Notes: a model not told the origin generated them from the letters alone. A stretch of 64,000 bases of DNA from an uncultured cyanobacterium (GCA_963718615.1 OY970368.1:3347973-3411972); one strand, 5' to 3'. Shown: positions 30,935 through 46,523, numbered from the stretch's first letter. Numbers and translations are program-made.

Positions 30935-32002
30935 ATGGGCTCATCCAATCCGACGGCAGCGCTGGAAACCCTTCAGTCAGAACTCTCTACCCTTATTGCT
31001 CAATTACCGTCCTTAGAACATGGCAAGCTGATTAAGCGTGTTCTAGAAAGCCTCTTGGTGATGGCCCAGGAAGACCTAGAACGCCTGGATTGGAAAATTT
31101 TGCTGGGCTCTTTGCAAGACATGGAGCGAGCCTTCACGCTGTTTTCGCCCTATCGACATATTCGCAAAATTGCGGTGTTTGGTTCAGCGCGAACGCCAAA
31201 GACGGACCCGGATTATCCGATGGCGGTTGAGTTTTCTCGCCGGATGGCGGAGCAAGGCTTCATGATTATGACGGGTGCAGGGGGGGGGATCATGGAGGCA
31301 GCGAATGAAGGGGCGGGGCGATCGCAATCCTTTGGGCTCAATGTCCAACTCCCCTTCGAGCAAAGCGCCAATCCCTTTATCAAAGGGGATAATAAGCTTC
31401 TGCAATTTAAATACTTTTTCACCCGCAAACTCTTTTTTCTGCGGGAAACCGATGCAGTCGCGGCCTTCCCTGGTGGTTATGGCACCATGGATGAACTCTA
31501 TGAATGTTTAACCCTGGTGCAAACGGGAAAATTTGGACCAGCACCGCTCATTTTGGTTGATCGACCGGGTGGAGATTATTGGCAGGAGTGGGAGAAATTT
31601 AGTAAGGATCAGCTTCTTCTAAAAGGACTCATTAGTCCTGAAGATCCTTGCCTATATACGATTACGGATCAAGTCGAAGTTGCCTGTCGAGTTATCTCTG
31701 ATTTCTATCGTGTTTACCATTCTAGTCGCTATGTTGGACCCTTGTTTATCATGCGGCTCAAGGCTGAACTAACGGATGAAGATGTAGAGTTTCTGAATCA
31801 TTCATTCAAAGATATTTTAGTCACCGATCGGATTGAAAAAACTCAAGCCCTGCCGGAAGAGGCCGCCGATGAAACCGTTGGCATGCCGCGCCTTAAGTTT
31901 CACTATAATCAGCGAGATACGGGACGTCTTTATCAACTGATTGCAGAAGTGAATCGATTGGGTGTCAAGTCCCTAGGTGAAGCTCACCCAGAGCAAAAAT
32001 AA
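30935..32002 (+). CDS. LOG-family protein (lysine-decarboxylase-like fold, long form)
   Basis: 'IAVFGSART', 'TGAGGGIMEAANEGA' and 'PGGYGTMDELYE' motifs. Confidence 0.8.
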   Translation: MGSSNPTAALETLQSELSTLIAQLPSLEHGKLIKRVLESLLVMAQEDLERLDWKILLGSLQDMERAFTLFSPYRHIRKIAVFGSARTPKTDPDYPMAVEFSRRMAEQGFMIMTGAGGGIMEAANEGAGRSQSFGLNVQLPFEQSANPFIKGDNKLLQFKYFFTRKLFFLRETDAVAAFPGGYGTMDELYECLTLVQTGKFGPAPLILVDRPGGDYWQEWEKFSKDQLLLKGLISPEDPCLYTITDQVEVACRVISDFYRVYHSSRYVGPLFIMRLKAELTDEDVEFLNHSFKDILVTDRIEKTQALPEEAADETVGMPRLKFHYNQRDTGRLYQLIAEVNRLGVKSLGEAHPEQK

Positions 32003-32311
32003 TTTGATTATCGCATCCTAAGAAGAGTCAATGTTCCAATTTTATAGCATTGACTTTGTGGGCCTAATGATTGCTCTCGACCTTGACTCCAATACAGTTC
32101 TTGGCCCAGTAAATTAATATTGTCTAAAGTTATTCGTGATCATTTTACCAACAGCTTTCTTACGTATTTGAGACAGCTTTATCGATAAATTGGGAAAACT
32201 AGAAGCTAAGCACTACACGATTTAATTTTCTGTTTCTCGGAAAATCGAGGATCTTTATCAGGGTTGCATTTGCTGTACTCCCGTCAGGAAAGTCTACCAG
32301 GACTGTGTCTC

Positions 32312-34924
32312 ATGAGTTACGGCCATGTTTCCGATCTAGCATCTCCTAGGAGCCAGCCAGGTCGGGATGCTGCATCCAATTCTCACCCGACCGACCCGAT
32401 GTCTTCAGGTTGGTCTGAGTTTCAGCATCTGTTCCTAACGCTGAATGAAAGCGATGGCTTTTCTCAGCTTAAACTCGTCTTGGAGAGTATGGATGATGCC
32501 ATTGTTTTGCTTAATGCTCAGAGAGCACTCCTCTTTGTCAACTCAGCCGCTAATCATCTTTTAGGAGATGGGGTGCATAGCTTTGTGCAACAAGATTGGG
32601 CAATTAGGTTAAGCGAGCTCTATGGAGCCCAAAAGTCTGCCCCAATCTCTTTGTCTGCTCAATCTTTTCTAGAGTCTACAGATTCTTCCTCCCTTTCAGA
32701 GGCAAAACCTAGAGTCTTTAAAATTTATAGCACGGATGAGCCCGAGCAATGGATCACAGTTGTTGAACGTCCTCTCCATAATCCTCAACAGCAGTTGCTT
32801 GGCAGTTTAATTATTTGCCGTGATATCAGTGAACATAAGCGGGTTGAGGAAAAGCTGTTACATGATGCTTTCCATGACAAGCTAACGGGATTGCCCAATC
32901 GCAATCTACTACTCAAGCAGTTGGAACGGGCGATCGCCACTACTCAACAATCCTCTAAATATCAATTTTCTGTTTTATTTTTAGATCTTGATCGGTTTAA
33001 GGTCATTAATGATAGCCTTGGTCCCATAGTTGGAGACCAACTACTGATTGCAGTAGCACAACGACTGAAACGTTGCCTAAGGGTAGAAGATATAATTGTG
33101 CGCTTAGGCGGTGACGAATTTGCAATTTTGTTGAATGATATCAAAGATATCAACTATAGTCAGCAGGTTGCTGATCGAGTCAACCAAGAGCTAGTCTTAC
33201 CCTTTAATCTGAATGGACATGAAGTGTTCGCGGATGTCAGTATTGGCATTGCGACTGGTGCCCAGGGGTATGAAAAACCAGAAGAAATTTTGCGGGATGC
33301 AGACATTGCAATGCACCATGCTAAAGAACTGGGAAAATCCTGTTATCAGTTCTTTGATAAAGCGATGCATATCGATGCAGTCAAGCTGCTTCAGCTTGAA
33401 AACGATATTCGTCGAGCAGTTGATCGGAAGGAATTTCAAGTTCACTACCAACCGATCATCTCACTGCACAGCGAGGAAATTGCAGGATTTGAAGCGTTAG
33501 CTCGCTGGCGACATCCTCAACAAGGATTTATTCCTCCCTCAGAATTTATTCCCGTTGCAGAAGAAACAGGTTTAATCATTCCCCTAGGACTTTGGGTTTT
33601 ACAGGAAAGCTGTTGGCAGATGAAAGTCTGGCAACTTCAGTTTCCTGAGGCGCACCAATGGACAATCAGCGTCAACATCTCCGGTCGTCAGTTGATGAAG
33701 CCACACTTTGTGGAGCATGTAAAGCATATCTTAGCTGACACAAATCTCTCTTCTAAAAACCTAAAGCTGGAAATTACTGAGAGTGTTTTACTAAATAGTA
33801 ATCAAGAGGTTACTTATATCCTAAAACAGCTTCAATCAATTGGTATTCAGCTTGCAATGGATGACTTTGGCACTGGATATTCTTCGATGAGCTATCTCTT
33901 AGATTTTCCATTTAATACGCTTAAAATTGATCGATCATTTATTAAGAGCATGGAAGGGTCTAGGAAAAAACTAGGCATTGTTCGTTCCATTATTAACATG
34001 TCAAGCAATTTAGATATGAATGTCATTGCTGAGGGTGTTGAAACTATGGGACATCTGGCTCAGCTCAAAGTTTTAAAGTGTGGCTATGGTCAGGGACATT
34101 TCTTTGCTAAAGCATTAGACTCTCAATCTGCTGAAGGGTTTATTATTTCTGAGCTTGCAAAAGTTGGAAGTAATCGTTATTCCGATCTTGAGATGTCGGT
34201 TGAAGAACTGCGATCTCGAGAACAACTACTTCTACAAATCGAAAGCCTTCAACAGGAATTAAACGAAATTAAGCAAGAGAAAGTCGATCTTGAAATTTTA
34301 TTGGAAACAGCCACAGAACATGCGAGCATTGTCGAACTAGAATTAGAGCAAGAGATTTTCGACTATCAGAAAAACGAAGAGGCTCTTCAAAAAGCCAATC
34401 GTGAACTAGAAAATTTATCTAGCCTAGATAGCCTAACTCAGTTGGCAAATCGCCGTCGTTTTGATGAATATATCAGAGAACAATGGGATATCTTAGGTCA
34501 ACAAAACAAGCCACTCTCGCTTATTCTTTTGGATGTTGACTACTTTAAAAATTATAACGACCATTATGGACATCAAGCTGGAGATAACTGCCTCATTCAA
34601 GTTGCCCAAGTGATGATGCAATCTGTCAAAAGTTCTCAGGATTTAACGGCTCGATATGGTGGCGAAGAATTCGCAGTGATTATGCCTAATACAGGGGCAG
34701 GAAGTGCAATTAGAACTGCTGAGCAAATCCGCATCACATTAAAATCTCGCCAAATTTCTCATGCCGGATCTCTAGTTGGTGAACATGTTACAGTCAGTCT
34801 TGGTATTGTTAGTTTAGTACCAACCGCAACGGGCAAACCAAATGCACTGATTGACTTAGCTGATCGCGCACTCTATGAAGCTAAGTCTCAAGGGCGTGAT
34901 CGGTTTATCTTATTTTCAAGCTAA
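32312..34924 (+). CDS. PAS-GGDEF-EAL-GGDEF signalling protein (diguanylate cyclase/phosphodiesterase)
   Basis: First GGDEF 'RLGGDEFAIL', EAL domain 'FEALARWRHPQQGFIPPSEFIPVAEETGLI', coiled coil, second GGDEF 'YGGEEFAVIMP'. ATG at 32312; ORF track starts at TTG 32264. Confidence 0.85.
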   Translation: MSYGHVSDLASPRSQPGRDAASNSHPTDPMSSGWSEFQHLFLTLNESDGFSQLKLVLESMDDAIVLLNAQRALLFVNSAANHLLGDGVHSFVQQDWAIRLSELYGAQKSAPISLSAQSFLESTDSSSLSEAKPRVFKIYSTDEPEQWITVVERPLHNPQQQLLGSLIICRDISEHKRVEEKLLHDAFHDKLTGLPNRNLLLKQLERAIATTQQSSKYQFSVLFLDLDRFKVINDSLGPIVGDQLLIAVAQRLKRCLRVEDIIVRLGGDEFAILLNDIKDINYSQQVADRVNQELVLPFNLNGHEVFADVSIGIATGAQGYEKPEEILRDADIAMHHAKELGKSCYQFFDKAMHIDAVKLLQLENDIRRAVDRKEFQVHYQPIISLHSEEIAGFEALARWRHPQQGFIPPSEFIPVAEETGLIIPLGLWVLQESCWQMKVWQLQFPEAHQWTISVNISGRQLMKPHFVEHVKHILADTNLSSKNLKLEITESVLLNSNQEVTYILKQLQSIGIQLAMDDFGTGYSSMSYLLDFPFNTLKIDRSFIKSMEGSRKKLGIVRSIINMSSNLDMNVIAEGVETMGHLAQLKVLKCGYGQGHFFAKALDSQSAEGFIISELAKVGSNRYSDLEMSVEELRSREQLLLQIESLQQELNEIKQEKVDLEILLETATEHASIVELELEQEIFDYQKNEEALQKANRELENLSSLDSLTQLANRRRFDEYIREQWDILGQQNKPLSLILLDVDYFKNYNDHYGHQAGDNCLIQVAQVMMQSVKSSQDLTARYGGEEFAVIMPNTGAGSAIRTAEQIRITLKSRQISHAGSLVGEHVTVSLGIVSLVPTATGKPNALIDLADRALYEAKSQGRDRFILFSS

Positions 34925-35231
34925 ATTAGTAAAACTATCTTTTCAAAGAGATACCTTTTAATAACATTTTGATGGACTGTATGAGTGCAAAACTAAATCA
35001 TTAAAAATTGAGAAAGCTATTTACTTCTCTACAGACAATTATTAATCAATGCCTTTGGGTCTGATGAACGACATCTACTGGTGCGAATATATCGAGAATT
35101 TAAAAAGAAAAAACTAGATTTATAGGCTCACAAGGCATTGGCAAGGCATTAGCAATGTCTTACCTCCAAAAAGCATAGACTCGACAACCTCCCAAATATT
35201 CTAAACAGCCAATAAAGAGAAGAAAAAACTT

Positions 35232-35627
35232 TTATTGTATTTCTAGTTTCAGGCTTGGCATCAAACGTTGTAAATTCTTTAGAGATTTACCCTGCCAAGG
35301 AATCTCTTCGTTACCTAGCACAGTTAATTGAACTGTTTTACGCTTCCTAATGTTGATTACAAACTTAGATAATAAGCTAATTCCCAAGCTATTTAGGAAC
35401 TGGAGCGAGCGTAAGTCAATTATAATTAGAGACGACTCTTGGTCTGCCATGGCTTCTAACATAGAGATAATTTGTTGATAATCAGGCTCACTGCCTTGAA
35501 ATCTCATCGAGCCTTCCAGTCGGATAGTTGCTTGATTAGAATCGTAAAAGACACAATATTTTTCATGGGAAATTTTCATATGTAATACTTCTTTGAATGG
35601 AGATTGAGAACTAGGCATGATATTCAA
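35232..35627 (-). CDS. STAS-domain protein (anti-sigma-factor-antagonist / SpoIIAA-RsbV-like)
   Basis: 'IIDLRSLQFLNSLGISLL' resembles the SpoIIAA phospho-serine region (DLSxVxF[MI]DSSGLG); last gene of the minus-strand operon. Confidence 0.5.
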   Translation of the reverse strand: MNIMPSSQSPFKEVLHMKISHEKYCVFYDSNQATIRLEGSMRFQGSEPDYQQIISMLEAMADQESSLIIIDLRSLQFLNSLGISLLSKFVINIRKRKTVQLTVLGNEEIPWQGKSLKNLQRLMPSLKLEIQ

Positions 35628-35695
35628 AAAATGTGAAGCAGAAAGGATCGTTAACAGCTTTAAAGATGACCAAATCGAACAGTAGTCCTATAAGT

Positions 35696-36295
35696 CTAAA
35701 TAGCTAGTTGTACCATAGTCGTAACCGTTATACTATCCTGACTAGTCGACTCATATTCAAACTTCCAGCCTAACTTTGCCGAATAGTCATTTAGCATAGT
35801 AAGTAGACCCAGCCCAGAATCAATATGATTTTCAGCATTTCTTTCGAGCTGACGAATATAAAGCTCTTCTGGATCTGAATTGACAACCTCTTCAATATAG
35901 CGTTGGAAACTTAAAACTGAATGCGGATTGATACTGTTTTTGATAAAGAAGATAATTTTGTCGACATCAAAGCAGAGACGAATTTGCGTATAGTCTACTT
36001 GGTTTTTATAACTAAACTTCATCGCATTTTCCAATAGCTCGTTGGCAATGAAGCTTACTGCATCTTTAATTTCAGCTTGTTTTTTCTGAGCCGCAAGATC
36101 TTCGTCCTTAATTGGTAAACAAGTTACAAGATAATCAGCGAGGAAATCAGCAGATATACCATTATTGCGCCATCTTTTCCTAGGAGGAGCACTACTAGGT
36201 GTGAAATGCAAAACTAGCTGCTCTCTGCAAGGAGGTAAGGCATCAATAAAATCACCAAACGTTGTAGCTGTTGGTATTATATTTCTGATAGTCAT
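35696..36295 (-). CDS. GHKL-type ATPase, anti-sigma-factor-like serine kinase (RsbW/SiaB-like)
   Basis: N-box-like 'ANELLENAMKFS' and G-box-like 'DSGLGL'; about 200 aa with no HisKA domain; adjacent to the STAS gene. Confidence 0.5.
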   Translation of the reverse strand: MTIRNIIPTATTFGDFIDALPPCREQLVLHFTPSSAPPRKRWRNNGISADFLADYLVTCLPIKDEDLAAQKKQAEIKDAVSFIANELLENAMKFSYKNQVDYTQIRLCFDVDKIIFFIKNSINPHSVLSFQRYIEEVVNSDPEELYIRQLERNAENHIDSGLGLLTMLNDYSAKLGWKFEYESTSQDSITVTTMVQLAI

Positions 36296-36323
36296 TGTTT
36301 TTCCTCGGAGTAGTTAATTAGTT

Positions 36324-38126
36324 TCAGTTTTTACGTTTAATAACTAAAAGTGTAATGTCATCGTAAATTTTACTATTGTCGATATGATCGTATAAGTCCT
36401 TAATTACAGTATCCTTAATTTCTAAAGCTGATTGATGACGGCATTGATTGATGCGATCGCACATTCGTTCCAGACCATACAACTTTCCCTCTTTACTCTC
36501 CGCTTCTGTAACACCATCAGTATAAAGAACAATAACGTCTCCTGGATGAATATAAACCTCGGTTTGATCAATAAAATCAAGAATCTCCTCTTCAAGTCCA
36601 ATGGGAAAACCCAAATCAACTGTACTAATTTGATTAATTTTTCCAGATTGAGTAAAGATTAATACTTCCTCATGCTGTCCACTTATCTTTAAACGCCCCT
36701 CATTATAGTCAACTAGCATCAACGTCAGATTTTTATCAGTTTCCATCCTCTTAATGTTGTGAAATATGGTTCGATTAACAACATCAAGAATTCGATTTTG
36801 TTCCGTTTCTCCATTCTCAATCAATGTTCGAATTGTGGTCTGGACCATTAACATTAACACGCCACTTTCTAGGCCGTGTCCCGTTACGTCTCCTATACCA
36901 ATCCGAATAGAGTCTCCATAGCAAATCACGTCATAATAATCTCCTCCAACTTCTTCCGCAGGCGTCATAAATCCTGCAATTTCCAGATCCTCAATTTTGG
37001 CAAGCTCTTTTTCTTTTGGAAGGATCATTTGCTGTAACTTTTGTGTGATTTCTAATTCAGCATTTAGTCGTGTATTTTCTTGTTCTAGCTTTTGATTTAA
37101 TGTTGTAATTTCATGATTAGCTTGTGCAAGTTGGTCGAGATATGAAGTTTCTTGATCTCGTAATCTTTTCTTCTCAAGACAAGCATCTACACGTGCTTTG
37201 AGTAAAACTGGATTAAAGGGCTTTGCTAGATAGTCTTCTGCCCCCATTTCAATGCATTTAACGACACTATCAATTTCGTCTAAAGATGAAATCATAATTA
37301 CAGGTAAATATCGCCAATCGCTGTTTCTTAGCCATTTTAATACCTGATATCCATTAATCTCTGGCATAATAACATCGAGCAACACTAAATCAAAGCTGCC
37401 TGACGTAATTGCTTGAATTGCTTCTAATCCACTCGAAACTTCTGTTTTCTGATGCCCTTGTCGCTGAACATATCGACTTAGTAAATCTCGATTGACAGCG
37501 TTGTTATCAACAATCAAAATATGAGATTTATAACTTAGATCAGACTTGTGTTCAGTATCTTTATTCTTAGAATGACAGTTTATTTCTTGTCTGTAGTCGG
37601 ATAGAGAAGGCGAGAAGTCTGAAATATTTTCTTGTTGCTTTTGAGTCGAAAACTTTAATGGCATTGTAACTGAGCTTTGTTGGATCAAGTCTTGAAAGAG
37701 ACAAGCTGCAACTTCTATTTTCTCAACATCAGCCCTGAAGGATTTAGGTGCTAAAGGTTTAAGATTTTGGCACTTTTCCAGCAATGGCTGAGCCAAAGGC
37801 TGCAACCGTGCTCGAACCCAATGTTTTGCACAATTCGATATCTCAAAAGCTATATTTTCGTCAATGACAAACTCATCTTGCAATGATTCTATCGTTAAAC
37901 CGCGACCAATATAGGATACTAAATGTTTGTTCTTTAGTGAGATCTCATGTAACTGTGACGATAGGATTTGGATATCTTGCAGATCAACTGATTCTTCCAA
38001 CTCCTCTATTAATAGCTCACTGTAGCCTTGAATTGCATTTAAAGGCGTATAAAGCTCATGTCTAAAATGAGCAATCCATGAGCTATAGTCTATTAGTTCA
38101 GCATCTAATGCTTGAGACACATTCAT
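36324..38126 (-). CDS. HisKA-like / receiver / PP2C (SpoIIE-type) phosphatase fusion protein
   Basis: N-terminal H-box 'HELYTPLNAIQGYSELL' with no ATPase domain; REC domain ('ILIVDNN...DLVLLDVIMPEINGY...MISS...KP'); coiled coil; C-terminal PP2C ('GGDYYD...GIGDVTGHGLESG...LYTDGVTEA'). Confidence 0.8.
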   Translation of the reverse strand: MNVSQALDAELIDYSSWIAHFRHELYTPLNAIQGYSELLIEELEESVDLQDIQILSSQLHEISLKNKHLVSYIGRGLTIESLQDEFVIDENIAFEISNCAKHWVRARLQPLAQPLLEKCQNLKPLAPKSFRADVEKIEVAACLFQDLIQQSSVTMPLKFSTQKQQENISDFSPSLSDYRQEINCHSKNKDTEHKSDLSYKSHILIVDNNAVNRDLLSRYVQRQGHQKTEVSSGLEAIQAITSGSFDLVLLDVIMPEINGYQVLKWLRNSDWRYLPVIMISSLDEIDSVVKCIEMGAEDYLAKPFNPVLLKARVDACLEKKRLRDQETSYLDQLAQANHEITTLNQKLEQENTRLNAELEITQKLQQMILPKEKELAKIEDLEIAGFMTPAEEVGGDYYDVICYGDSIRIGIGDVTGHGLESGVLMLMVQTTIRTLIENGETEQNRILDVVNRTIFHNIKRMETDKNLTLMLVDYNEGRLKISGQHEEVLIFTQSGKINQISTVDLGFPIGLEEEILDFIDQTEVYIHPGDVIVLYTDGVTEAESKEGKLYGLERMCDRINQCRHQSALEIKDTVIKDLYDHIDNSKIYDDITLLVIKRKN

Positions 38127-38128
38127 AG

Positions 38129-38515
38129 CTACTCGTTTGAATAGGGCTGCGTTTTTTTGAGCAATGCTTCGATTTTACTAATCAGGCGTTTTAGATCTAC
38201 TGGCTTAGTATCATAGTCATCACAACCGGCTTCTAGTGCCTTTTCGCGATCGCCTGACATTGCATGAGCAGTTAATGCAATAATCGGAATAGATTGAGTT
38301 TGAGGATTAAATTTAATATAACGCGTTGCTTCCCATCCATCTAAAATAGGTAAGCTCATATCCATTAAGACTAAGTCAGGTTTTTCTGCAATACTCATTG
38401 TCACACCTTGGGCCCCATCGGAAGCAATTGCAACCTCGTAGCCACGTCGACTTAATCGTCGAGACAGCATATCTTGATTCATTTCGTTGTCTTCAACCAG
38501 AAGTAGCTTTACCAT
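38129..38515 (-). CDS. Single-domain response regulator (CheY-like receiver)
   Basis: 'LLLVEDNEMNQDM...DLVLMDMSLPILDGWEA...ALTAHAM...KP'. Start placed at the ATG giving 'MVKLLLVED'; ORF track extends to 38560. Confidence 0.8.
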   Translation of the reverse strand: MVKLLLVEDNEMNQDMLSRRLSRRGYEVAIASDGAQGVTMSIAEKPDLVLMDMSLPILDGWEATRYIKFNPQTQSIPIIALTAHAMSGDREKALEAGCDDYDTKPVDLKRLISKIEALLKKTQPYSNE

Positions 38516-38576
38516 AAATTTAAAGGTCAAAATTCTTAAAAAGATTAGGGAAATAGGCAAAAGTTTAAATCTCCAA

Positions 38577-41054
38577 CTAAGATATATATGGTATTAGTAA
38601 TTGAGAGTTTTCTTTTAACCTTTCCTGTCTTTCTATTGCTTTTAATAATAGATCTTTTAATGTTGAAAGGAGAATCTTGCTTTCGCATAAATCTTTAATT
38701 AAAATTTCCTCAACTTGTCCTTGCAAACTTTGACGTTCAATGAAAGTTAGATCTTTAGCAGTCATTAAGATAACTGGGATTGCATCATAGAGACTATCCT
38801 GCCGTAAAGCCTGTAAAAACTCAAAACCATTCATTTTAGGCATCAAAAGATCTAATATAATTAAATTAGGATAGAAACCTGAATTTAATAGATGAAGACC
38901 TTCTATACCATTTTCAGCCGTTTTGACTATCCAACCTGCTGGTTCAAGTTGATGCGTTAATAAGTCTCGAATGATAGGATCGTCATCAATGAGCAGGATT
39001 TCTCGATTTTCTCCCTCTTGACAACAGCGTTGTAAAACCTCATATAGTCTTTGACGATCTATTGGCTTTGTTAAATATTCTGAGGCACCGAGCGCATATC
39101 CTCGACTCTGATCGTTTACAAAACTCATCATAATAACAGGAACCTCAGCTAGTTCTGAGTCGCTCTTAATCTGACTTAAAACAGACCAACCATCAATATC
39201 AGGCAAAATTACATCCAAGGTAATTGCCTGAGGACGGATTTCCCGAGCTAATCGTAGGCCCTCACTTCCTGTCGTAACAGTTTGTACAGCAAATCCCTGT
39301 TTAACAAGAAAACGACGCATAATGTCGTGAACGGCTAGATCATCATCTATGACTAATATCGTTTTTTGTAAGTTAGGCTTTGAAAAGTCTTCGTTTTCCT
39401 GGACAACACTTAAATTATTTTTATGGATATCAACCTTTCTAGGTAGTTGAATTATAAATGTGGAACCCTCTCTCAATTGACTGTCTACTTTAATGCTTCC
39501 TCCCATCATTAAACAGAACTCCTTAGTAATTGCTAATCCAAGTCCTGTTCCTCCATACTTACGGGTAGTAGAAGCATCTGCTTGAGAAAATGCTTGAAAT
39601 AACTTATTTTGCTGCTCAATCGTCATTCCAATACCCGTATCTCGAACTTTAAATAGAATCAAGTTTTGATCACTATCTTGATCCTCGACGATTTCTAAAT
39701 AAATTTTTCCACAACTTGTAAACTTACTTGCATTGCTCAGTAAGTTTAGTAAGCATTGGCGAATTTTAGTTAGATCAGCATACATTTCGCCAATATCGAC
39801 AGCACATTCTATAATCAACTGATTTTGCTGTTTATCTATTAATGGATGTACTGTTGTAACGACGTCCTCTATTAAATCTTGAATTGAAAAAGTTTCTAAG
39901 TAAACTTCCATTCGGCCTGCTTCTATTTTAGATAAATCTAAAATATCGTTGATCAGACCTAGCAAATGCTTTCCCGCACTATGAATTTTAACTAAATCTG
40001 GGACAAAATCTTCTTCGCCTAAATCAAGCGCCTCTTCATGCAGCATCTCACTGTATCCAATAATTGCATTAAGTGGTGTTCGTAGCTCATGACTCATATT
40101 GGCAAGAAACATACTCTTCGCCTGATTTGCCTCTTCTGCAGCGGCTTTTGCCTCACGAGCTTCTTCAATGCTATCCGCTAACTCTGTAGTTCGCTGAATG
40201 ACCTTCTGTTCTAGAGTTCGATTATAGTCTGCTAAATCTTCTTTTGCCTTTTCCAAGTCAATTTGGCTACTTTCTAGAGCTTCTGTTTTATTTTGAATCA
40301 TGCTAGCCATTTGATCAAACGCACGGGAAATTGTTGCGAGTTCATCAGACCCCTTGAGCTGAGCACGCACACTTAAGATTCCCTCTGATAATAAGTTACT
40401 GGCTGAGACTAACCTGGCAGCACGTCGAGTTAAGACCTCTTCAAAAAAGAACCAAACTGCTATACAAAGAAGGGTAAGAACAAAGGTGGATTCTAGCGAT
40501 CGCTTTAAAGCATCTCCATAGGTCTGTTGGCGTAGGCGCTTTAAGTCATAATCTAGGAACAAAATACCAATTTTTGAGGGTAATATTTCGCCTGGATCTG
40601 ACTTGAAAGCAACTGGATATAGGGCTTGAATAGATTGATGATCTGGACTGATTAAAACTTCACCTGCCTGCATTTGACGAATTTTTTCTATCTTTACATG
40701 GAGTTGATCTGCGGGAGTTTCTTCAATTGAAAGACCCTTGAGAAGCTGAGATGTCGTTAGAAGTACCTTATTTTGATCATCGAAGAGAATCGCAGACTTT
40801 AATTCAACTTCGTCTTCTAACTGACTGATCATAAGAGCAGCACCATCCCCGCTGACGCGACGATACAAGTATTCCAAGATACCAGAGGTATGGTCGCCCA
40901 TAAATCTGACGTAGTTGCTTACATTTTGCTCATTGCGACGATGAGCGAGGTATACTTCACGCCGAAATGAGTAAAAGCTAGAAAAACTACCTAAGATTAG
41001 TAAAATTAACGGAATTGAAAGGCGTAGGGGTGGTGGAAACCGCTTTGACATCAT
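38577..41054 (-). CDS. Hybrid sensor histidine kinase (periplasmic sensor region, TM, HisKA, HATPase_c, two C-terminal REC domains)
   Basis: H-box '[19 protein letters not shown]', G-boxes 'RDTGIGM' and 'GGTGLGLAI', then two receiver domains; N-terminal 180-aa region lies between two hydrophobic segments. Confidence 0.85.
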
Positions 41055-41092
41055 CAGCTCCTAAGAAAGGACAAACAACAATCGTTGTTTGA

Positions 41093-42121
41093 CTAAGGAC
41101 GAATACTTTTGATGACGCTGTCGTCCATCAGTAGAGTTGGATCAACTGTCTTTTTCAATAAACCGTTCTGTTTCATAATTGTTACAAGATGTTTTGAGCT
41201 TTGTACTAAAGTAGATTCTTGACTTCCTAATAGAGTTTTATTTTCTTCTAGACTCGGGACTCTTACTCCTTTTAAGGATGCTAAGAAGTCTGTAGACGAC
41301 ATATTGTAATCAGCAGCCAAGAGTTCAGCAGATTTTTGAGGATTTGCTTCTAGATATTCTTGAGCCTTAAACCATCCTTCCAGTAGGTGTTTTAGATTAC
41401 GATGTTGATTTTTGAGCGTCTCTGTATGCACACCCAGAACATCGACAATCTCTCCAGGAATCTGGCTACTATCAAATAGGTGATTTGCACCTTCCGTAAC
41501 CAGTCGAGAGCTCATCGGTTCATAGGTCACTAATCCATCAACCTTGTCTTTTTTAAAGGCTTGACCATGTTCGAAGGTTGCCAAAGGGACGATTTGCAAA
41601 TCCTTAGTTGAAAGATTTACGGTTTCTAGAGCTCGGGTTAGAAGAAACGCACCTAATCCTGATGATTCAACGCCGACTCGCTTCCCTGATAGTTCCTTTA
41701 AACTGGAAATGTCAGGCTTGCCTAAAATCGCATCGGCTCCATGGGAGCTGTCAATAACTAAGACAAAGCGCATATCCTGCATGACCTCAGCGATTGGCAT
41801 TGCATCGTTCATCGTCAATGCAACGGCGTCAAGTTCACCATTTCGAAAGGCTTTGAACATTGCACTATTGGAAGAATAGGTTGTTAGGTTGGCAACATTA
41901 GAATCGTAATACTTTAAGTCCTTTGCAAGATAAAAGCTTGCATATCCTGGCCAAACAACAACACCTATCCTGATAGGATTTTCTCCAATTTGAATACAGG
42001 ACGGCAAAGAAACGGTACAGAACAAAGAAACGAGAAGAAGGGAAATCCATTGAACTTTCAATTGAGAAGCAAACAACTTGATACAAGACAAAGTTTTTGC
42101 TTTCAAGAGACTTAGATCCAT
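41093..42121 (-). CDS. Periplasmic substrate-binding protein (NMT1/SsuA/TauA-like fold)
   Basis: Hydrophobic N-terminus, then 'IRIGVVVWPGYASFYLAKD' and overall class-II SBP layout; no ABC permease or ATPase nearby. Confidence 0.65.
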   Translation of the reverse strand: MDLSLLKAKTLSCIKLFASQLKVQWISLLLVSLFCTVSLPSCIQIGENPIRIGVVVWPGYASFYLAKDLKYYDSNVANLTTYSSNSAMFKAFRNGELDAVALTMNDAMPIAEVMQDMRFVLVIDSSHGADAILGKPDISSLKELSGKRVGVESSGLGAFLLTRALETVNLSTKDLQIVPLATFEHGQAFKKDKVDGLVTYEPMSSRLVTEGANHLFDSSQIPGEIVDVLGVHTETLKNQHRNLKHLLEGWFKAQEYLEANPQKSAELLAADYNMSSTDFLASLKGVRVPSLEENKTLLGSQESTLVQSSKHLVTIMKQNGLLKKTVDPTLLMDDSVIKSIRP

Positions 42122-42174
42122 GACTCAATACCTCAAAAATAAAGAGAAAAACTATATTGGTTTATTAATGAAAC

Positions 42175-43227
42175 CTATTGGTTAGACGCTAGTGCTTCAA
42201 TAAGATGATTGTCAATCAATTCTTCTAGTGGATAAATCTTTTGAAGATGGTGACTTTGTGCCAATTCTTCTTGAAGCTTATGTACACATTTTTCTAACCA
42301 TGATTCTTTGAGAGAGAGCATCCTTGCATTTTCCTCTAAAGTATATTCATGAATTCCTTGCATTGCTTTGAAAAGTTCTTTACTCATTAGCTTATTGCGA
42401 GCAAAAATTATTTTAGCCGCATCTTGAGGCTTGTTTCTGTAGTATTCTTGTGCTTTAAACCAACCGTTTATGAGCTCTTGAAGAGCTAATTTATAGCTTT
42501 CTATTGAATCATCTCGAACCAACAAAACATCAACGATCTCGTTCAGCATTTGATGACTACTAAAGACTTCTTGAGCTCCTTCTGCTATTAGCTGAGAAAG
42601 AATTGGTTCATAGGTGATAATCGTAGAAACTGATGACTGACGGAATGAATTAATTTGATCATTCAGATCAAGGGGAACAACCTGAATATCCTCTATCGTC
42701 AGTCCTGCCAGATCGAGTAGACGTGTGAGCATTAAGGTTCCCCGGCTCGAAGCTTCTATAGCAACAGTTTGTTTTTTTAATTCATAGAGAGATTTTATAG
42801 GATTTCGAGTAATAACAGCATCTGCCCCACAGGAACTACTCAAGATCAAGACAATTTTGAGATGCGGATCTGTATCTGAAAGAAGCAAAGCATCTCCCAA
42901 TGAAAGCAGTAATCCGTCAAGTTGCTGATTGCGAAAGGCACGATTTTTATCTTCAACGGTAGGATAATTAATCAGCCTAATATCTTGTTGATCGTAATAG
43001 CCTAAACGTTGAGCAAGATAAACGTTGTTATAAGAAAGGCCAGTAGTTGTTCCAATTCTGAGAGGAGCTGCATTCGAGGTGCAACTCACAAAGGCTAGAC
43101 TAATAGCGCTAATGAGTCCAACCAAAAGCGTCTTGAAGCGATGTTTTTTGGGAACCGGCGATCGCCAAGCGGAATATATTCTATTGATCAATCTAATTGA
43201 TCTAAGTGGTAGAGAACGGCGCATCAC
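42175..43227 (-). CDS. Periplasmic substrate-binding protein, paralogue of 41093..42121
   Basis: Same layout, with 'LLEGWFKAQEYLEANPQ' in one and 'LINGWFKAQEYYRNKPQ' in the other; first gene of the operon. Confidence 0.65.
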   Translation of the reverse strand: MMRRSLPLRSIRLINRIYSAWRSPVPKKHRFKTLLVGLISAISLAFVSCTSNAAPLRIGTTTGLSYNNVYLAQRLGYYDQQDIRLINYPTVEDKNRAFRNQQLDGLLLSLGDALLLSDTDPHLKIVLILSSSCGADAVITRNPIKSLYELKKQTVAIEASSRGTLMLTRLLDLAGLTIEDIQVVPLDLNDQINSFRQSSVSTIITYEPILSQLIAEGAQEVFSSHQMLNEIVDVLLVRDDSIESYKLALQELINGWFKAQEYYRNKPQDAAKIIFARNKLMSKELFKAMQGIHEYTLEENARMLSLKESWLEKCVHKLQEELAQSHHLQKIYPLEELIDNHLIEALASNQ

Positions 43228-43676
43228 CTTTACTTACCCAACAAACTGCTGGAAATTGACTCATTATCCTTTTGACCCATTAATCGCCTTTAACTCCGTC
43301 TCTGTTTTATAGAAAAGCGGTTTATCTACGGCTTTGGATAGGATGTCCTTCAGTATGCCCAGCGAGATTTTAAAACCGACAAAATTTGATTAGTCCGTAA
43401 AACCTAGGAAGCACTTGAGTCATGATTCTCTAGGAAACCGTGTTTTTACTCAATTCTCCTTAGTCAGGGTTATCTATGCTAGATATGTAGATCTTGTCTA
43501 TGGGCTTCATCTCTATTACTTAGAAGCTGTCTGCTTAAATGTTATCCGTCTTGTCGTTTTCCATCTTGATTGCTATCTAGCGTTGATCACTCAGTTGATT
43601 CATCAAGTTGGTACACTCAATTAGTACGTCGCCATTCTCATCCATCATTCTTGTACGTTGTAGAGTTTTGAACACA

Positions 43677-44900
43677 ATGAAATCCTCTGTGCATAGGCTG
43701 AATGACATTACCCAGCATGAAATTGAGGCACTCAAACATGAATATAATATGTCTGATGCTCATACACATCAATCTCAGTCTCCAAGCCAGAGGAAAATTG
43801 TAGAGCGTCTACCACAGCTTTGGTTTGACGCAGAGAATAAGCGACAACATGAGTTAGAGCAATGCTTCTTAGAAAATTTCTTTCGGGTACAGGGACGACC
43901 TTGGGCGCTTAAAAATAAGCTTCCTATGCTGGTCTATTCAGCTTCAATTGCAATGGCAATTACTGCAAACTACCTGCTTAAGAAAAAGCTGACTGTAAGT
44001 TTAATTCATCCATGTTTTGACAACTTGGTCGATCTGATGAAAAACATGCAGGTTCCACTTCAAGCACTTGAAGAGGAATGGCTGTATGATCCCGAAATGA
44101 TCTATGAGAATCTCGAAAAGAATGTCAAGAGTGACGCTATCTTCTTGGTTGATCCTAACAATCCATCTGGATTTACGCTATATCAGCAAGGAATAGTCGG
44201 TTGGCAAGAGCTAATCCGGTTTGCGAAAGAAAACAAAAAGTTGCTGATTTTTGACTTTTGCTTTGCAGCTTTCATGCTGAATAACAAAAATCTACAGCTC
44301 TTCGACATTTATGAAATGTTGGAGACTTCTGGTGTAAGCTATATTGCGATGGAGGATACGGGTAAGACTTGGCCGCTACAAGATGCTAAGGTTGCTATGC
44401 TTAAAAGCAGTGCTGATCTTTACGCGGATATCTACAATCTTTATACTGCTTATCTTCTGAACGTATCACCTTTTATACTGAATATCGTAACTCAGTATAT
44501 TCTTGATTCTGAAAAAGATAAATTTGCATCAGTGCACGGTTTGCTGAGCCGCAATCGTGCGATCGCTGAAGGAATTCTCAAAGATTCTATTTTAGAACCA
44601 ATGACTCCTTTGGTGAATGTTAGTGTGATGTGGTGTCGAATCAACAGTGAACAGATTCAATCTAGTCAGCTCAAGACTTACTTGACAGAATTTGACATTC
44701 ACATTTTACCTGGAACTTTCTTTTTCTGGAATTCACCCCAGCGCGGCGAACGCTTTATTCGCTTGGCTTTAGCGCGTAATACTGAAACTTTCGAACCTGC
44801 CGTACGAGCCCTTCGAGATGCTGTTGACCAATACGAAGTTTTCCTCTCCGCTCAGAAAACTCAGCGGGATTTATGCTCCCCTAGTAACGCCCTTTTATAA
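43677..44900 (+). CDS. PLP-dependent aminotransferase-fold protein
   Basis: 'LVDPNNPSGF' and a candidate PLP-lysine in 'MEDTGKTW'. Start placed at the ATG giving 'MKSSVHRL'; ORF track begins at TTG 43608. Confidence 0.6.
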   Translation: MKSSVHRLNDITQHEIEALKHEYNMSDAHTHQSQSPSQRKIVERLPQLWFDAENKRQHELEQCFLENFFRVQGRPWALKNKLPMLVYSASIAMAITANYLLKKKLTVSLIHPCFDNLVDLMKNMQVPLQALEEEWLYDPEMIYENLEKNVKSDAIFLVDPNNPSGFTLYQQGIVGWQELIRFAKENKKLLIFDFCFAAFMLNNKNLQLFDIYEMLETSGVSYIAMEDTGKTWPLQDAKVAMLKSSADLYADIYNLYTAYLLNVSPFILNIVTQYILDSEKDKFASVHGLLSRNRAIAEGILKDSILEPMTPLVNVSVMWCRINSEQIQSSQLKTYLTEFDIHILPGTFFFWNSPQRGERFIRLALARNTETFEPAVRALRDAVDQYEVFLSAQKTQRDLCSPSNALL

Positions 44901-45672
44901 GGGACAGTTTGATCAAGACTCACTCTATCGCCTGATGGATACGATTGAGCCCTTTGCAGAGGGATTTGTACCCTGTTTGAGTTCTGGCGAAGGTCAGTTT
45001 CTTTCCCTCTCAACTTGGCAGAATGTTATCCAGGCAACGCGTCAATATACTCAGAAGGTAGTTATTGCGGGGATCAAACGTGAAACTCTACAAGAGACAA
45101 TAGCGTTAGGTAAACTGGCACAACAGTTGGGTTGTGATGCCATTATTGTGCCGGTACCTGTCTCAGATGATAGGGTTACCGTTGGTTACTTCAATCAAAT
45201 TACCGCTGCGATCGCCCTACCCATTGTTATCTATAATACGGAAAGCCATTCTATTCAATCACTAGATGGTTTAAGGCAACTGGAGAGCTTACCTCAAATC
45301 ATTGCTATTAAGGATTCTTCCATGAATGAAGAATTTTTTAAGCTCCTTTGTAATTTGAGAACTCAAGCGCAGCTCCGTCTTTCGGTTCTACAGGGATTTG
45401 AACATCTTTTGCAAGTCCCCCCTGGTTGTGATGGCTATCTCATTGCCTTGGCAAATCTTGAACCAGAGCTTTGCCATCGAATGTTGCTTGAAAATTCTGA
45501 TGTGATCAATAGTGAAATTCTAGATTGCTTTTGGCGTTATAACCTGGGTGCTGATTGGTTTGTGAGTATGAAGGCAATTTTGATGGCTCGCCAAGTCATT
45601 CGCTCTGCGGAACAAGTTAATCTAATGGTTCAACCCGATCTTAAATCGGTTCCTAATTTGGCGATCGCATAG
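44818..45672 (+). CDS. DapA/NAL-family (class I aldolase, dihydrodipicolinate-synthase-like) protein
   Basis: 'GIYAPLVTPF' N-terminal motif and 'IIAIKDSS' candidate Schiff-base lysine. Overlaps the preceding gene by 83 bp; true start may be a non-ATG codon further in. Confidence 0.65.
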   Translation: MLLTNTKFSSPLRKLSGIYAPLVTPFYKGQFDQDSLYRLMDTIEPFAEGFVPCLSSGEGQFLSLSTWQNVIQATRQYTQKVVIAGIKRETLQETIALGKLAQQLGCDAIIVPVPVSDDRVTVGYFNQITAAIALPIVIYNTESHSIQSLDGLRQLESLPQIIAIKDSSMNEEFFKLLCNLRTQAQLRLSVLQGFEHLLQVPPGCDGYLIALANLEPELCHRMLLENSDVINSEILDCFWRYNLGADWFVSMKAILMARQVIRSAEQVNLMVQPDLKSVPNLAIA

Positions 45673-45984
45673 CCATCATCAAGCTTAACTAAGCATGCTT
45701 CCATCATTCCAATGATCGAGTGGATAAAAACAAGTTAACTGATTGCCTGCGATTTTTTTTATGAGTTGCAGGCTTTTTCGATATTTAATTTGATCAATAA
45801 CCCAATGCTGTGTAATTTACTTAAGCTTGAATGTTTTCAAATAAATTTGAAATTTTAGGCTACTTAGTCTGATATTGCTTTTGTTTTATTCATAAAAAGT
45901 TCGGATTGTATCTATGAACTAGGAAGATGGAAATAGAGATGGCTATCACGGTTATTTCTTGCTTATCTTCATTGCTTTATTTCT

Positions 45985-46485
45985 ATGTTGGGCTGGATCT
46001 TCTTGGCTTTTGCAGTTTGTTTGGATGTTCTGGGCACATTTGCTGCAAAATATGCGAATGGGTTTACAACACTGATTCCATCACTCATTACTATTGGGGC
46101 CTATTGTTTATCATTTACAGCGTTGACCTTTTCGATCAAAACACTCGATGTCAGCGTGGCTTATCCGGTTTGGACTGGCTCTGCAATCTTTTTAGTGGCT
46201 GTTTTAGGGGCTGTATTCTTCCACGAAACGGTCAATTTCTTTAAAGTCTTTTCAACACTTTTGGTCGTCTTTGGCATCGTTGGCTTAGTGGTTAGTAGCC
46301 AGCCCGATGCAGCGGCTTGTCCGCCGGAGGTAGAACAAACTCAGCACCTACTCCAGAGCAGTAATCGCCCAAGGCTGTCCATGTCTCCTGTCTTTCATCG
46401 ATTAGGCACACCTGTACTCTATGCAACTGTTAAGGGATACTCTGCCAACGTCATTCGTTTAAAGCCAGAGTTTTCTGAAAACTAA
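45985..46485 (+). CDS. SMR/DMT-like small membrane transporter with about 60-aa C-terminal extension
   Basis: Four TM helices in the first ~105 aa; hydrophilic tail follows. ATG start. Confidence 0.45.
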   Translation: MLGWIFLAFAVCLDVLGTFAAKYANGFTTLIPSLITIGAYCLSFTALTFSIKTLDVSVAYPVWTGSAIFLVAVLGAVFFHETVNFFKVFSTLLVVFGIVGLVVSSQPDAAACPPEVEQTQHLLQSSNRPRLSMSPVFHRLGTPVLYATVKGYSANVIRLKPEFSEN

Positions 46486-46523
46486 GGATGGCAACGCAAT
46501 CTCGTGCTTAGGTTGCCATCCTT
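46484..46523. terminator. Hairpin with perfect 12-bp stem (aaggatggcaac / gttgccatcctt) and 16-nt loop, between convergent genes
   Basis: Starts at the stop codon of the 45985..46485 ORF. Confidence 0.5.

Follow-up and report, generated by a model that had tools for sequence, protein, structure and literature searches.

SiaABCD of Pseudomonas aeruginosa is a partner-switching system made up of the PP2C phosphatase SiaA, the kinase SiaB, the STAS-like protein SiaC and the diguanylate cyclase SiaD. The stalk helix of the SiaD dimer carries two conserved motifs in tandem, to which SiaC binds in four copies, stabilizing the active dimer; phosphorylation of SiaC at Thr68 blocks the binding of SiaD (PMC8457831). 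In Pseudomonas aeruginosa, the HptB-HsbR-HsbA-HsbD system carries a signal from hybrid kinases through a phosphorelay to a REC-PP2C protein, which determines the phosphorylation state of a STAS protein that activates a diguanylate cyclase, and the HsbD branch needs no sigma factor; BgrUWV is another two-component-fed, sigma-less partner switch with an enzyme as its output (PMC7647112). Sigma-less switches are also described from cyanobacteria, namely HenR-All4160-Alr3423 of Anabaena, where HenR is described as a phosphatase (bioRxiv 10.64898/2026.04.08.717354), and HmpWUV and HcyA-D of Nostoc punctiforme, the latter with the hybrid histidine kinase HcyD in its cluster (PMC9127174). The system discussed here is a cluster of seven minus-strand genes at 35232-43227 of a 64,000-nucleotide stretch of DNA from an uncultured cyanobacterium (GCA_963718615.1 OY970368.1:3347973-3411972; this whole stretch is referred to as the window), together with gX, a convergent gene for a proposed output enzyme. 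The seven genes, termed g7 to g1 in their order along the minus strand, encode two periplasmic binding proteins (g7, g6), a hybrid histidine kinase (g5), a single-domain receiver (g4), a fusion of DHp/H-box, REC and PP2C phosphatase domains (g3), and a regulator pair of the slr1658 and slr1659 families (g2, g1); the cluster is considered, with good confidence, to be a phosphorelay-fed partner switch of SiaBC-like type.

The likeness to SiaABCD lies partly in gene order, as most relatives of the cluster show a PP2C gene, a GHKL kinase gene, a gene for a small STAS-fold protein and a gene for a stalk-bearing cyclase; helical stalks occur in the outputs of these relatives, and tandem pairs of motifs are frequent there, as in SiaD. 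Many relatives carry a stalk-GGDEF gene directly downstream, whereas the candidate in the window, gX, is convergent and multidomain, and the outputs of other relatives include class III cyclases and histidine kinases. The input differs as well; the PP2C domain in the window shares one protein with DHp and REC domains, and a hybrid kinase would feed it, whereas SiaA is a membrane PP2C (PMC7278518) for which no two-component input is reported in the literature searched. The Hsb system is alike in that a REC-PP2C protein is fed by a hybrid kinase and is followed by a STAS protein and a cyclase output. It has a separate HPt protein, HptB, and the kinase domain of HsbR is fused to its REC-PP2C portion; the window differs in having no HPt domain, a DHp/H-box fused to REC-PP2C, and a separate putative kinase of the slr1658 family. 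HenR, HmpWUV and HcyA-D share with the window a cyanobacterial host, the combination of PP2C, kinase and STAS proteins, and non-sigma outputs; by their descriptions they differ in carrying conventional anti-sigma factor and antagonist annotations and in acting on polysaccharide synthesis or hormogonium development, and no output motif of the type found in gX is mentioned. The first-pass annotation did not recognize a described system in the arrangement, which overstated its novelty, because slr1658/slr1659 is a catalogued pair and because HptB-HsbR-HsbA-HsbD, SiaABCD, BgrUWV and HenR-All4160 are known, two-component-fed sigma-less switches being established. What appears to be new is the binding-protein pair as input, the DHp-REC-PP2C fusion that replaces an HPt step and, above all, a stalk motif that ties the family to three classes of output enzyme.

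Homologous loci were obtained by a scan of species-representative genomes, which returned 80 loci whose open reading frames (ORFs) were classified against the domains of the window; nearly all are cyanobacterial, the others being from Thiotrichaceae and Parabeggiatoa. An slr1659-like gene directly follows an slr1658-like gene in 79 of 83 cases, and a PP2C gene lies immediately 5' of the pair in 52 of 73. REC-PP2C proteins are present in 14 loci, and the full core of hybrid kinase, REC, HisKA-REC-PP2C, slr1658 and slr1659 in 11, mostly of Pleurocapsales type (Pleurocapsa, Waterburya, Xenococcaceae) with a G+C content of about 37-42%. The seven-gene order recurs on three metagenomic contigs (L082/L083 and L084), complete with a divergent aminotransferase gene and a DHDPS-family gene, and the 3' part of the cluster is held by L081; conservation of the neighborhood, which had been put forward as a check on the system, is thus borne out across the 80 loci. 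Relative to the slr1658/slr1659 family as a whole, the two-component and binding-protein input of the window is lineage-specific.

The slr1658/slr1659 Regulator Pair

Domain calls for the window proteins were made with Pfam and NCBIfam profiles. The product of g2 (35696-36295, minus strand) is a putative serine kinase with a predicted GHKL fold and the putative partner of g1; it matches Pfam DUF6272 and NCBIfam slr1658_cyano, with 250.1 bits (cut-off 200) and 229.1 bits (cut-off 100) against models of the slr1658 family. The product of g1 (35232-35627, minus strand), predicted to have a SiaC-like STAS fold, scores 141.9 bits (cut-off 100) against slr1659_superfam. By these profiles (NF052618, NF047703 and NF047705 for the slr1658/slr1659 superfamily regulator pair) g2 and g1 are members of catalogued families, which at 90% identity number over 4,000 (slr1658) and over 1,200 (slr1659) protein clusters; a literature search on DUF6272 found nothing. 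The likeness to slr1658/slr1659 of Synechocystis sp. PCC 6803 extends from these scores to the adjacency of the two genes, which is kept in nearly all relatives. The Synechocystis pair differs in being known by a genetic phenotype only, from one study: disruption of slr1658 alters the transcription of pgr5 and many other genes, pgr5 being raised about 1000-fold, and slows recovery from iron limitation (Zer et al. 2018, per PMC6525291, PMC7555055), and the signaling chain is stated there as not known (PMC6525291).

The first-pass annotation named g2 as GHKL kinase-like and g1 as STAS, and compared the module with SiaA/SiaB/SiaC; these assignments hold at the level of predicted folds, and the matches by sequence are weak. 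The AlphaFold (AF2) model of g1, with 25 homologues, has a predicted local distance difference test (pLDDT) score of 92.5, and its best Foldseek match is SiaC (6k4f, TM-score 0.74); SiaC free and in complex with SiaB or SiaD matches at TM-scores of 0.72-0.74, and anti-sigma antagonists come next. The AF2 model of g2 has a pLDDT of 81.6, with SpoIIAB, UsfX and RsbW as top neighbors and SiaB joint-best. Several results at the sequence level weigh against the Sia parallel: the Pfam STAS profile (PF01740) reaches 18.9 bits on g1, under its cut-off of 22.6, and PF09345 (SiaC/DUF1987) gives no match on g1 at E ≤0.01; g2 scores 21.8 bits against the SiaB family model, whose cut-off is 85, and its profile finds no meaningful match to a solved structure among PDB sequences. 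No HATPase family of Pfam matches g2, and a few g2 homologues match HATPase_c; one g1 homologue (P0123) does match PF09345. By these sequence results, the window module is best called a distant structural relative of SiaABCD. A canonical sigma-factor partner switch of the RsbU-RsbV-RsbW or SpoIIE-AA-AB kind was rejected, as only the folds match and no sigma factor is nearby; in agreement with the first-pass annotation, no sigma-factor domain was found in the proteins scanned (ORFs of at least 180 amino acids) over some 10 kb on each flank of the cluster.

In the homologue alignment of the slr1659 family Asn63 is invariant and Ser64 is at least 90% conserved, within F-L-N-S-(S/L)-G-I-S; in g1 the serine (Ser64 of the 115-residue form, Ser80 of the ORF) stands at the N-terminus of helix α2 in an FLN-S-LG context and is a candidate phospho-acceptor. 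Its LN-S-(S/L) site corresponds to LN-T68-S of SiaC, giving a common LN[S/T]S at the start of α2, where the SiaC phosphosite peptide LLYLN-T68-SSIK (N67-T68-S69) is also placed (PMC7647112, PMC8457831). In a metagenome-assembled genome of Rivularia a 322-residue ORF (L065:4622-5590) joins an slr1658-like domain (residues 5-194) to an slr1659-like domain (residues 209-322), and this fusion supports a direct partnership of the two domains; whether genuine or produced by the assembly, either origin is conceivable for it.

The residues of g2 bear in both directions on whether it is a kinase. The N-box (E86/N90) and a G2-like S-G-L-G-L are invariant in the family alignment; against phosphorylation of g1 by g2, an equally invariant Asn120 replaces the aspartate of the G1 box, and the glycines of DxGxG are missing. 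Asn120 is taken to occupy the G1 position from the AF2 secondary structure and the motif order of SpoIIAB. The G1 aspartate of GHKL ATPases contacts adenine, and its change to asparagine usually kills ATP binding. These changes, and the absence of a sequence-level match to a solved kinase, would suit a reading in which g2 has no kinase activity (a pseudokinase) and g1 stays unphosphorylated, with another substrate for the PP2C domain and a constitutive adaptor role for the g2/g1 pair. Such a reading is considered highly improbable: the acceptor serine, at least 90% conserved, is at the canonical position, the N-box Glu/Asn and GLGL are retained, and an intact PP2C gene lies directly upstream in the 52 of 73 loci mentioned above, a combination that is hard to explain without a phosphorylation cycle; SiaB too has been described as an unusual kinase (PMC7278518). 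Kinase activity of g2 is plausible from its residues and is not assured, because the canonical G1 aspartate is replaced.

The Stalk Motif and the Candidate Output Enzyme

The gene gX (32264-34924, plus strand) encodes a PAS-GGDEF-EAL-stalk-GGDEF protein by Pfam and motif inspection, and is proposed to be the output enzyme. Its first GGDEF domain carries the GGDEF signature and an I-site (RVED), the EAL domain carries EALAR and DDFGTG, and the last GGDEF domain carries GGEEF and no I-site. Genes 3' of slr1659 homologues match gX at residues ~646-700, in the linker between the EAL and last GGDEF domains; a catalytic or PAS domain as the shared segment was rejected, as was the impression from BLAST searches with gX that these genes all encode GGDEF proteins, many being PAS-class III cyclases or kinases in Pfam. 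The output types that bear the motif are short stalk-GGDEF proteins, PAS-class III cyclases, GGDEF+cyclase fusions and HisKA kinases. Their common feature is an N-terminal helical motif of about 45 residues (…SREQLLLEIExLRQEVExLKxEKADLEILLETTxEHSDxVE…), called the DLEILLET motif here, and many outputs carry a second, weaker copy in tandem; enzymes of these kinds are known to act as dimers.

A hidden Markov model (HMM) of the motif, built from output proteins of related loci, finds a motif-bearing enzyme gene within the cluster in 56 of 81 loci. Of 63 motif-bearing ORFs, 49 are co-directional with slr1659 and begin no more than 400 bp past its stop codon, 7 are the next gene downstream, 5 lie upstream in the cluster, 1 is divergent, and none is unlinked. 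The motif is rare: when residues 640-715 of gX were compared with 1.84 billion representative proteins, 71 matches only were returned, and the 57 of these that were domain-scanned contained PAS (31), GGDEF (15), HisKA (12) and class III cyclase (11) domains. No Pfam or NCBIfam family covers the motif, and no description of it was found in the libraries and literature searched; it has no evident resemblance to the SiaD stalk residues listed in PMC8457831, a comparison made by the listed residues only.

A six-frame search of the 64-kb window gives one match to the motif HMM (E 4.8e-18), at residues 651-694 of gX (34214-34345, plus strand; SREQLLLQIESLQQELNEIKQEKVDLEILLETATEHASIVELEL), which is the proposed docking site for the partner switch; as the only copy in the window lies in gX, gX is the likely target. 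The convergent PAS-GGDEF-EAL-GGDEF gene had already been suggested as an output candidate in the first-pass annotation, and the motif that it shares with the outputs of related modules makes the suggestion stronger. Several findings count against gX as the target. The gene is convergent with the cluster and not co-directional; the closest relatives of the cluster (L081-L084) have no motif-bearing gene within 10 kb, and in L090, from a related metagenome, the orthologue of gX (65% identity) is located elsewhere, so that the adjacency is not conserved; and the slr1658 study, the only genetics for the family, reports a transcriptional phenotype and identifies no second-messenger link or signaling chain (PMC6525291, PMC7555055).

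The unconserved adjacency, the lack of a motif gene within 10 kb in 11 of 14 loci with a two-component input (the window plus 13 loci of the Pleurocapsales and L081 types) and the change of pgr5 and many other transcripts on slr1658 disruption (PMC6525291, PMC7555055) would favor gX as a mere neighbor, with the true target elsewhere, be it another motif enzyme, a transcription factor or a sigma/anti-sigma pair, and a mainly transcriptional output. This alternative is judged improbable, since the sole motif in 64 kb lies in gX and the motif is otherwise tightly linked to the module. In addition, gX is part of the same low-G+C block as the cluster, and gX-like proteins (56-59% identity) adjoin the five-gene core in L020 and L021; a distant orthologue is compatible with action in trans. 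In L020 (1-4965) the gX-like EAL-stalk-GGDEF portion runs in-frame into an AMP-binding, carrier-protein and reductase module of non-ribosomal peptide synthetase-like type; this ORF is still open where the contig begins, and it is possible that the fusion is not real.

Which of the two small proteins would touch the stalk of gX is a separate matter. In L088 (4272-7274) and also in L089, the gene for a DLEILLET-motif PAS histidine kinase comes directly after a DUF6272 gene, with 135 bp between them, and no STAS-like or PP2C gene lies within 5 kb; by gene content the module is here reduced to a minimum of two genes. The arrangement hints, contrary to docking by g1, that the GHKL protein and not the STAS protein may be the partner of the motif. 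It accords with an RsbW-type logic, in which g2 would bind the DLEILLET stalk and keep the enzyme inactive until dephosphorylated g1 pulls g2 off; the structural neighbors of g2, UsfX, SpoIIAB and RsbW, are anti-sigma factors that bind a helical target, and a degenerate G1 box would suit a protein used mainly for binding. Even so, this logic, the main rival to docking by g1, is considered unlikely here, as g1 is closer to SiaC than to any anti-sigma antagonist, it is the STAS gene and not the GHKL gene that the motif gene comes after in nearly every case, and L088 is a single case; in the Sia system, moreover, SiaC binds the SiaD stalk and SiaB does not bind SiaD (PMC7278518, PMC8457831). Docking of unphosphorylated g1 on the gX stalk is the preferred reading.

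Probable Binding-Protein Input and Phosphorelay Proteins

The five upstream genes were described in the first-pass annotation as two binding proteins, a hybrid kinase, a receiver and a HisKA-REC-PP2C protein, and the profiles return all of these domains, with HisKA of g3 just below its cut-off. The proteins of g7 (42175-43227, minus strand; Pfam NMT1_2 and NMT1) and g6 (41093-42121, minus strand; Pfam NMT1_2, 5.5e-18) are paralogues and NMT1/SsuA-like periplasmic binding proteins; g7 reaches 81.7 bits with NCBIfam SsuA_fam, below the cut-off. Both N-termini are lipoprotein-like (…SLPSC in g6, …AFVSC in g7) and the two are probable lipoproteins. Orthologues of g7 at the same position show 48% (L082) and 34% (L084) identity. 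Homologues of g6 (44-47% identity) lie directly upstream of genes for transmembrane-HAMP transducers in three unrelated contexts (L085-L087); the N-terminal sensor domains of these transducers are 39-44% identical to residues 4-205 of g5, and their cytoplasmic outputs vary (GAF-GGDEF-EAL, GAF-kinase, PAS-kinase). A binding protein and a g5-like sensor domain co-occur in six of six contexts (L082-L087, sensor identity 39-71% to g5 4-205), and by this recurrence the two behave as a portable input cassette.

Next to the binding-protein genes, in the window as in the six related contexts, there are no genes for an ABC permease or ATPase, and an ordinary ABC uptake system was rejected on this ground. 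As a binding protein recurs by a shared sensor domain and has no transporter, the earlier proposal that the two binding proteins serve the kinase is supported; judged by the pairing, g6 is likely the ligand-sensing partner of g5. LuxP-LuxQ and TorT-TorS are alike in placing a periplasmic binding protein gene beside a transmembrane sensor kinase gene with no adjacent transporter; the window differs in having two proteins, of NMT1/SsuA (NitT/TauT) type, and a sensor domain that belongs to a cyanobacterial family reused with GGDEF-EAL and other kinase outputs. Divergent from the cluster are an aminotransferase gene (43608-44900, plus strand) and a DHDPS-family gene (44818-45672, plus strand), with an 83-bp overlap as called. 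Both genes keep their place beside the two binding-protein genes in L082, L083 and L084, which may reflect a connection with the sensed ligand or simple carriage in synteny.

The kinase g5 (38577-41054, minus strand) has a transmembrane segment at ~8-30, a periplasmic domain of about 160 residues (~31-188), a second transmembrane segment at ~189-208 and a HAMP domain, followed by HisKA (7.5e-21, H-box SHELRTPLN), HATPase_c (4e-26) and two REC domains; its cytoplasmic part scores well on TorS and LuxQ models. The gene g4 (38129-38560, minus strand) encodes a CheY-like single-domain receiver (Response_reg, 2.8e-25) with orthologues of 125 residues at 80-92% identity in L081-L084, and 69-77% identity in Pleurocapsales-type loci. 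In g3 (36324-38126, minus strand) a DHp/H-box (HisKA, 26.6 bits against a cut-off of 26.9), a REC domain, a coiled coil and a SpoIIE/PP2C domain (7.8e-38) follow each other, and the H-box, with His23, has no accompanying ATPase (CA) domain. Across an alignment of 14 g3 sequences His23 is present in 13, and D251 and K302 of the receiver are invariant, as are the PP2C metal-binding residues (D396, D399, D413, G416-H417-G418, D537, D589, D590). None of the seven proteins has an HPt domain in Pfam; by their domains and conserved residues, the components of a His-Asp-His-Asp phosphorelay are all present across g5, g4 and g3. DHp-type proteins in an HPt-like role are represented by Spo0B and ChpT.

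Proposed Mechanism, Genomic Context and Significance

The mechanism proposed here starts from the genes that are present, their domains, folds, catalytic and acceptor residues, their order and the link to the motif; each phosphotransfer step, the direction of regulation, the contact of g1 with the stalk and the reporting of ligand are inferred. The binding proteins g6 and g7 would report a periplasmic ligand to the periplasmic domain of g5, which would autophosphorylate and pass phosphate through its own receivers and/or g4. Phosphate would then reach His23 of g3, the ATPase-less DHp/H-box replacing the missing HPt, and from there Asp251 of the g3 receiver, setting the activity of the fused PP2C domain. 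It is hypothesized that g2 phosphorylates g1 on Ser64 at the start of α2 and that the PP2C domain of g3 removes this phosphate; unphosphorylated g1 would dock on the DLEILLET helix of the gX stalk, immediately before the C-terminal GGEEF domain, favoring a productive gX dimer and shifting gX toward synthesis of cyclic di-GMP, as SiaC does with SiaD. The full model is held with slightly more belief than doubt.

Seven minus-strand genes with short spacers had been described for this cluster, and the ORF listing of the window has seven ORFs at exactly the same coordinates, with spacers of 2-68 bp (53, 38, 16, 2, 28 and 68 bp from g7 to g1 as called). Up to three starts probably sit downstream of the longest-ORF start, in g1, g4 and possibly g7: a start at Met17 (35579) gives g1 115 residues, which matches homologue lengths, a start at Met16 (38515) is indicated for g4 by its 125-residue orthologues, and g7 could possibly be shorter than its longest ORF. 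Co-transcription as an operon is suggested by spacing and synteny only, because scans for consensus promoters and terminators found fewer sites than expected from shuffled sequence and are uninformative. The 38-bp spacer between g6 and g5 holds a hairpin with an 8-bp stem and then a T-rich tail (41072-41091, minus strand), by which transcription running on from the binding-protein genes into g5 could be attenuated; terminator-like sites are not commoner than in shuffled sequence. No Rfam match was found in 31-47 kb and no tRNA in the window; with the scans uninformative, this leaves no riboswitch or integration-site explanation.

The region 32000-46500 is a block of low G+C content (0.36-0.43, compared with 0.53 for the remainder of the window) that covers gX, the seven genes, the aminotransferase and DHDPS-family genes and an SMR gene; the clusters of L081-L084 also lie below the G+C content of their flanks (0.45-0.49 against 0.53-0.56), and synteny with L082 extends into a peptidase M17 gene of normal G+C content. 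The borders of the block show neither a tRNA nor an integrase. These features suggest horizontal acquisition or replacement from a low-G+C, Pleurocapsales-like donor. Pairs of slr1658 and slr1659 are also found on contigs or proteins labeled Thiotrichaceae, Candidatus Parabeggiatoa, Gracilibacteria and Actinomycetota (L058, L072, L021; P0224), of which the Gracilibacteria and Actinomycetota labels are possibly mis-binned; the non-cyanobacterial pairs suggest transfer out of cyanobacteria or binning errors. One locus (L061) has two complete modules in tandem, two (L066, L078) have two slr1658 or slr1659 paralogues, and two others (L016, L017) have a pair of stalk-GGDEF output genes in succession; duplication appears to be frequent in the family. 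Elsewhere in the window, a 2,731-residue ORF lies at its start (133-8328, plus strand), and a gene for an 880-residue eukaryotic-type Ser/Thr protein kinase lies about 5 kb beyond gX (25075-27717, minus strand).

A wider and more tentative reading, given a little less than an even chance, is that slr1658/slr1659 is a SiaB/SiaC-like plug-in switch for dimeric signaling enzymes in general, used across the cyanobacteria, in which the STAS or the GHKL protein docks on a DLEILLET stalk. Diguanylate cyclases, class III adenylate/guanylate cyclases and histidine kinases would then all have acquired the motif as a graft, and the pair in the window would be driven by a binding-protein-dependent phosphorelay in which an ATPase-less DHp domain replaces the HPt protein. 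The input of the window is fully specified, from the pair of binding proteins through the sensor kinase to the relay, and therefore convenient for reconstituting the path from ligand to second messenger. The slr1658/slr1659 pair is very common in cyanobacteria; it is now tied structurally to SiaB and SiaC, with a motif that marks its likely targets, and offers a testable model of how many cyanobacteria control cyclic AMP/cyclic GMP, cyclic di-GMP and kinase outputs. If true, the plug-in reading would provide a mechanism for the unexplained phenotype of slr1658 in Synechocystis.

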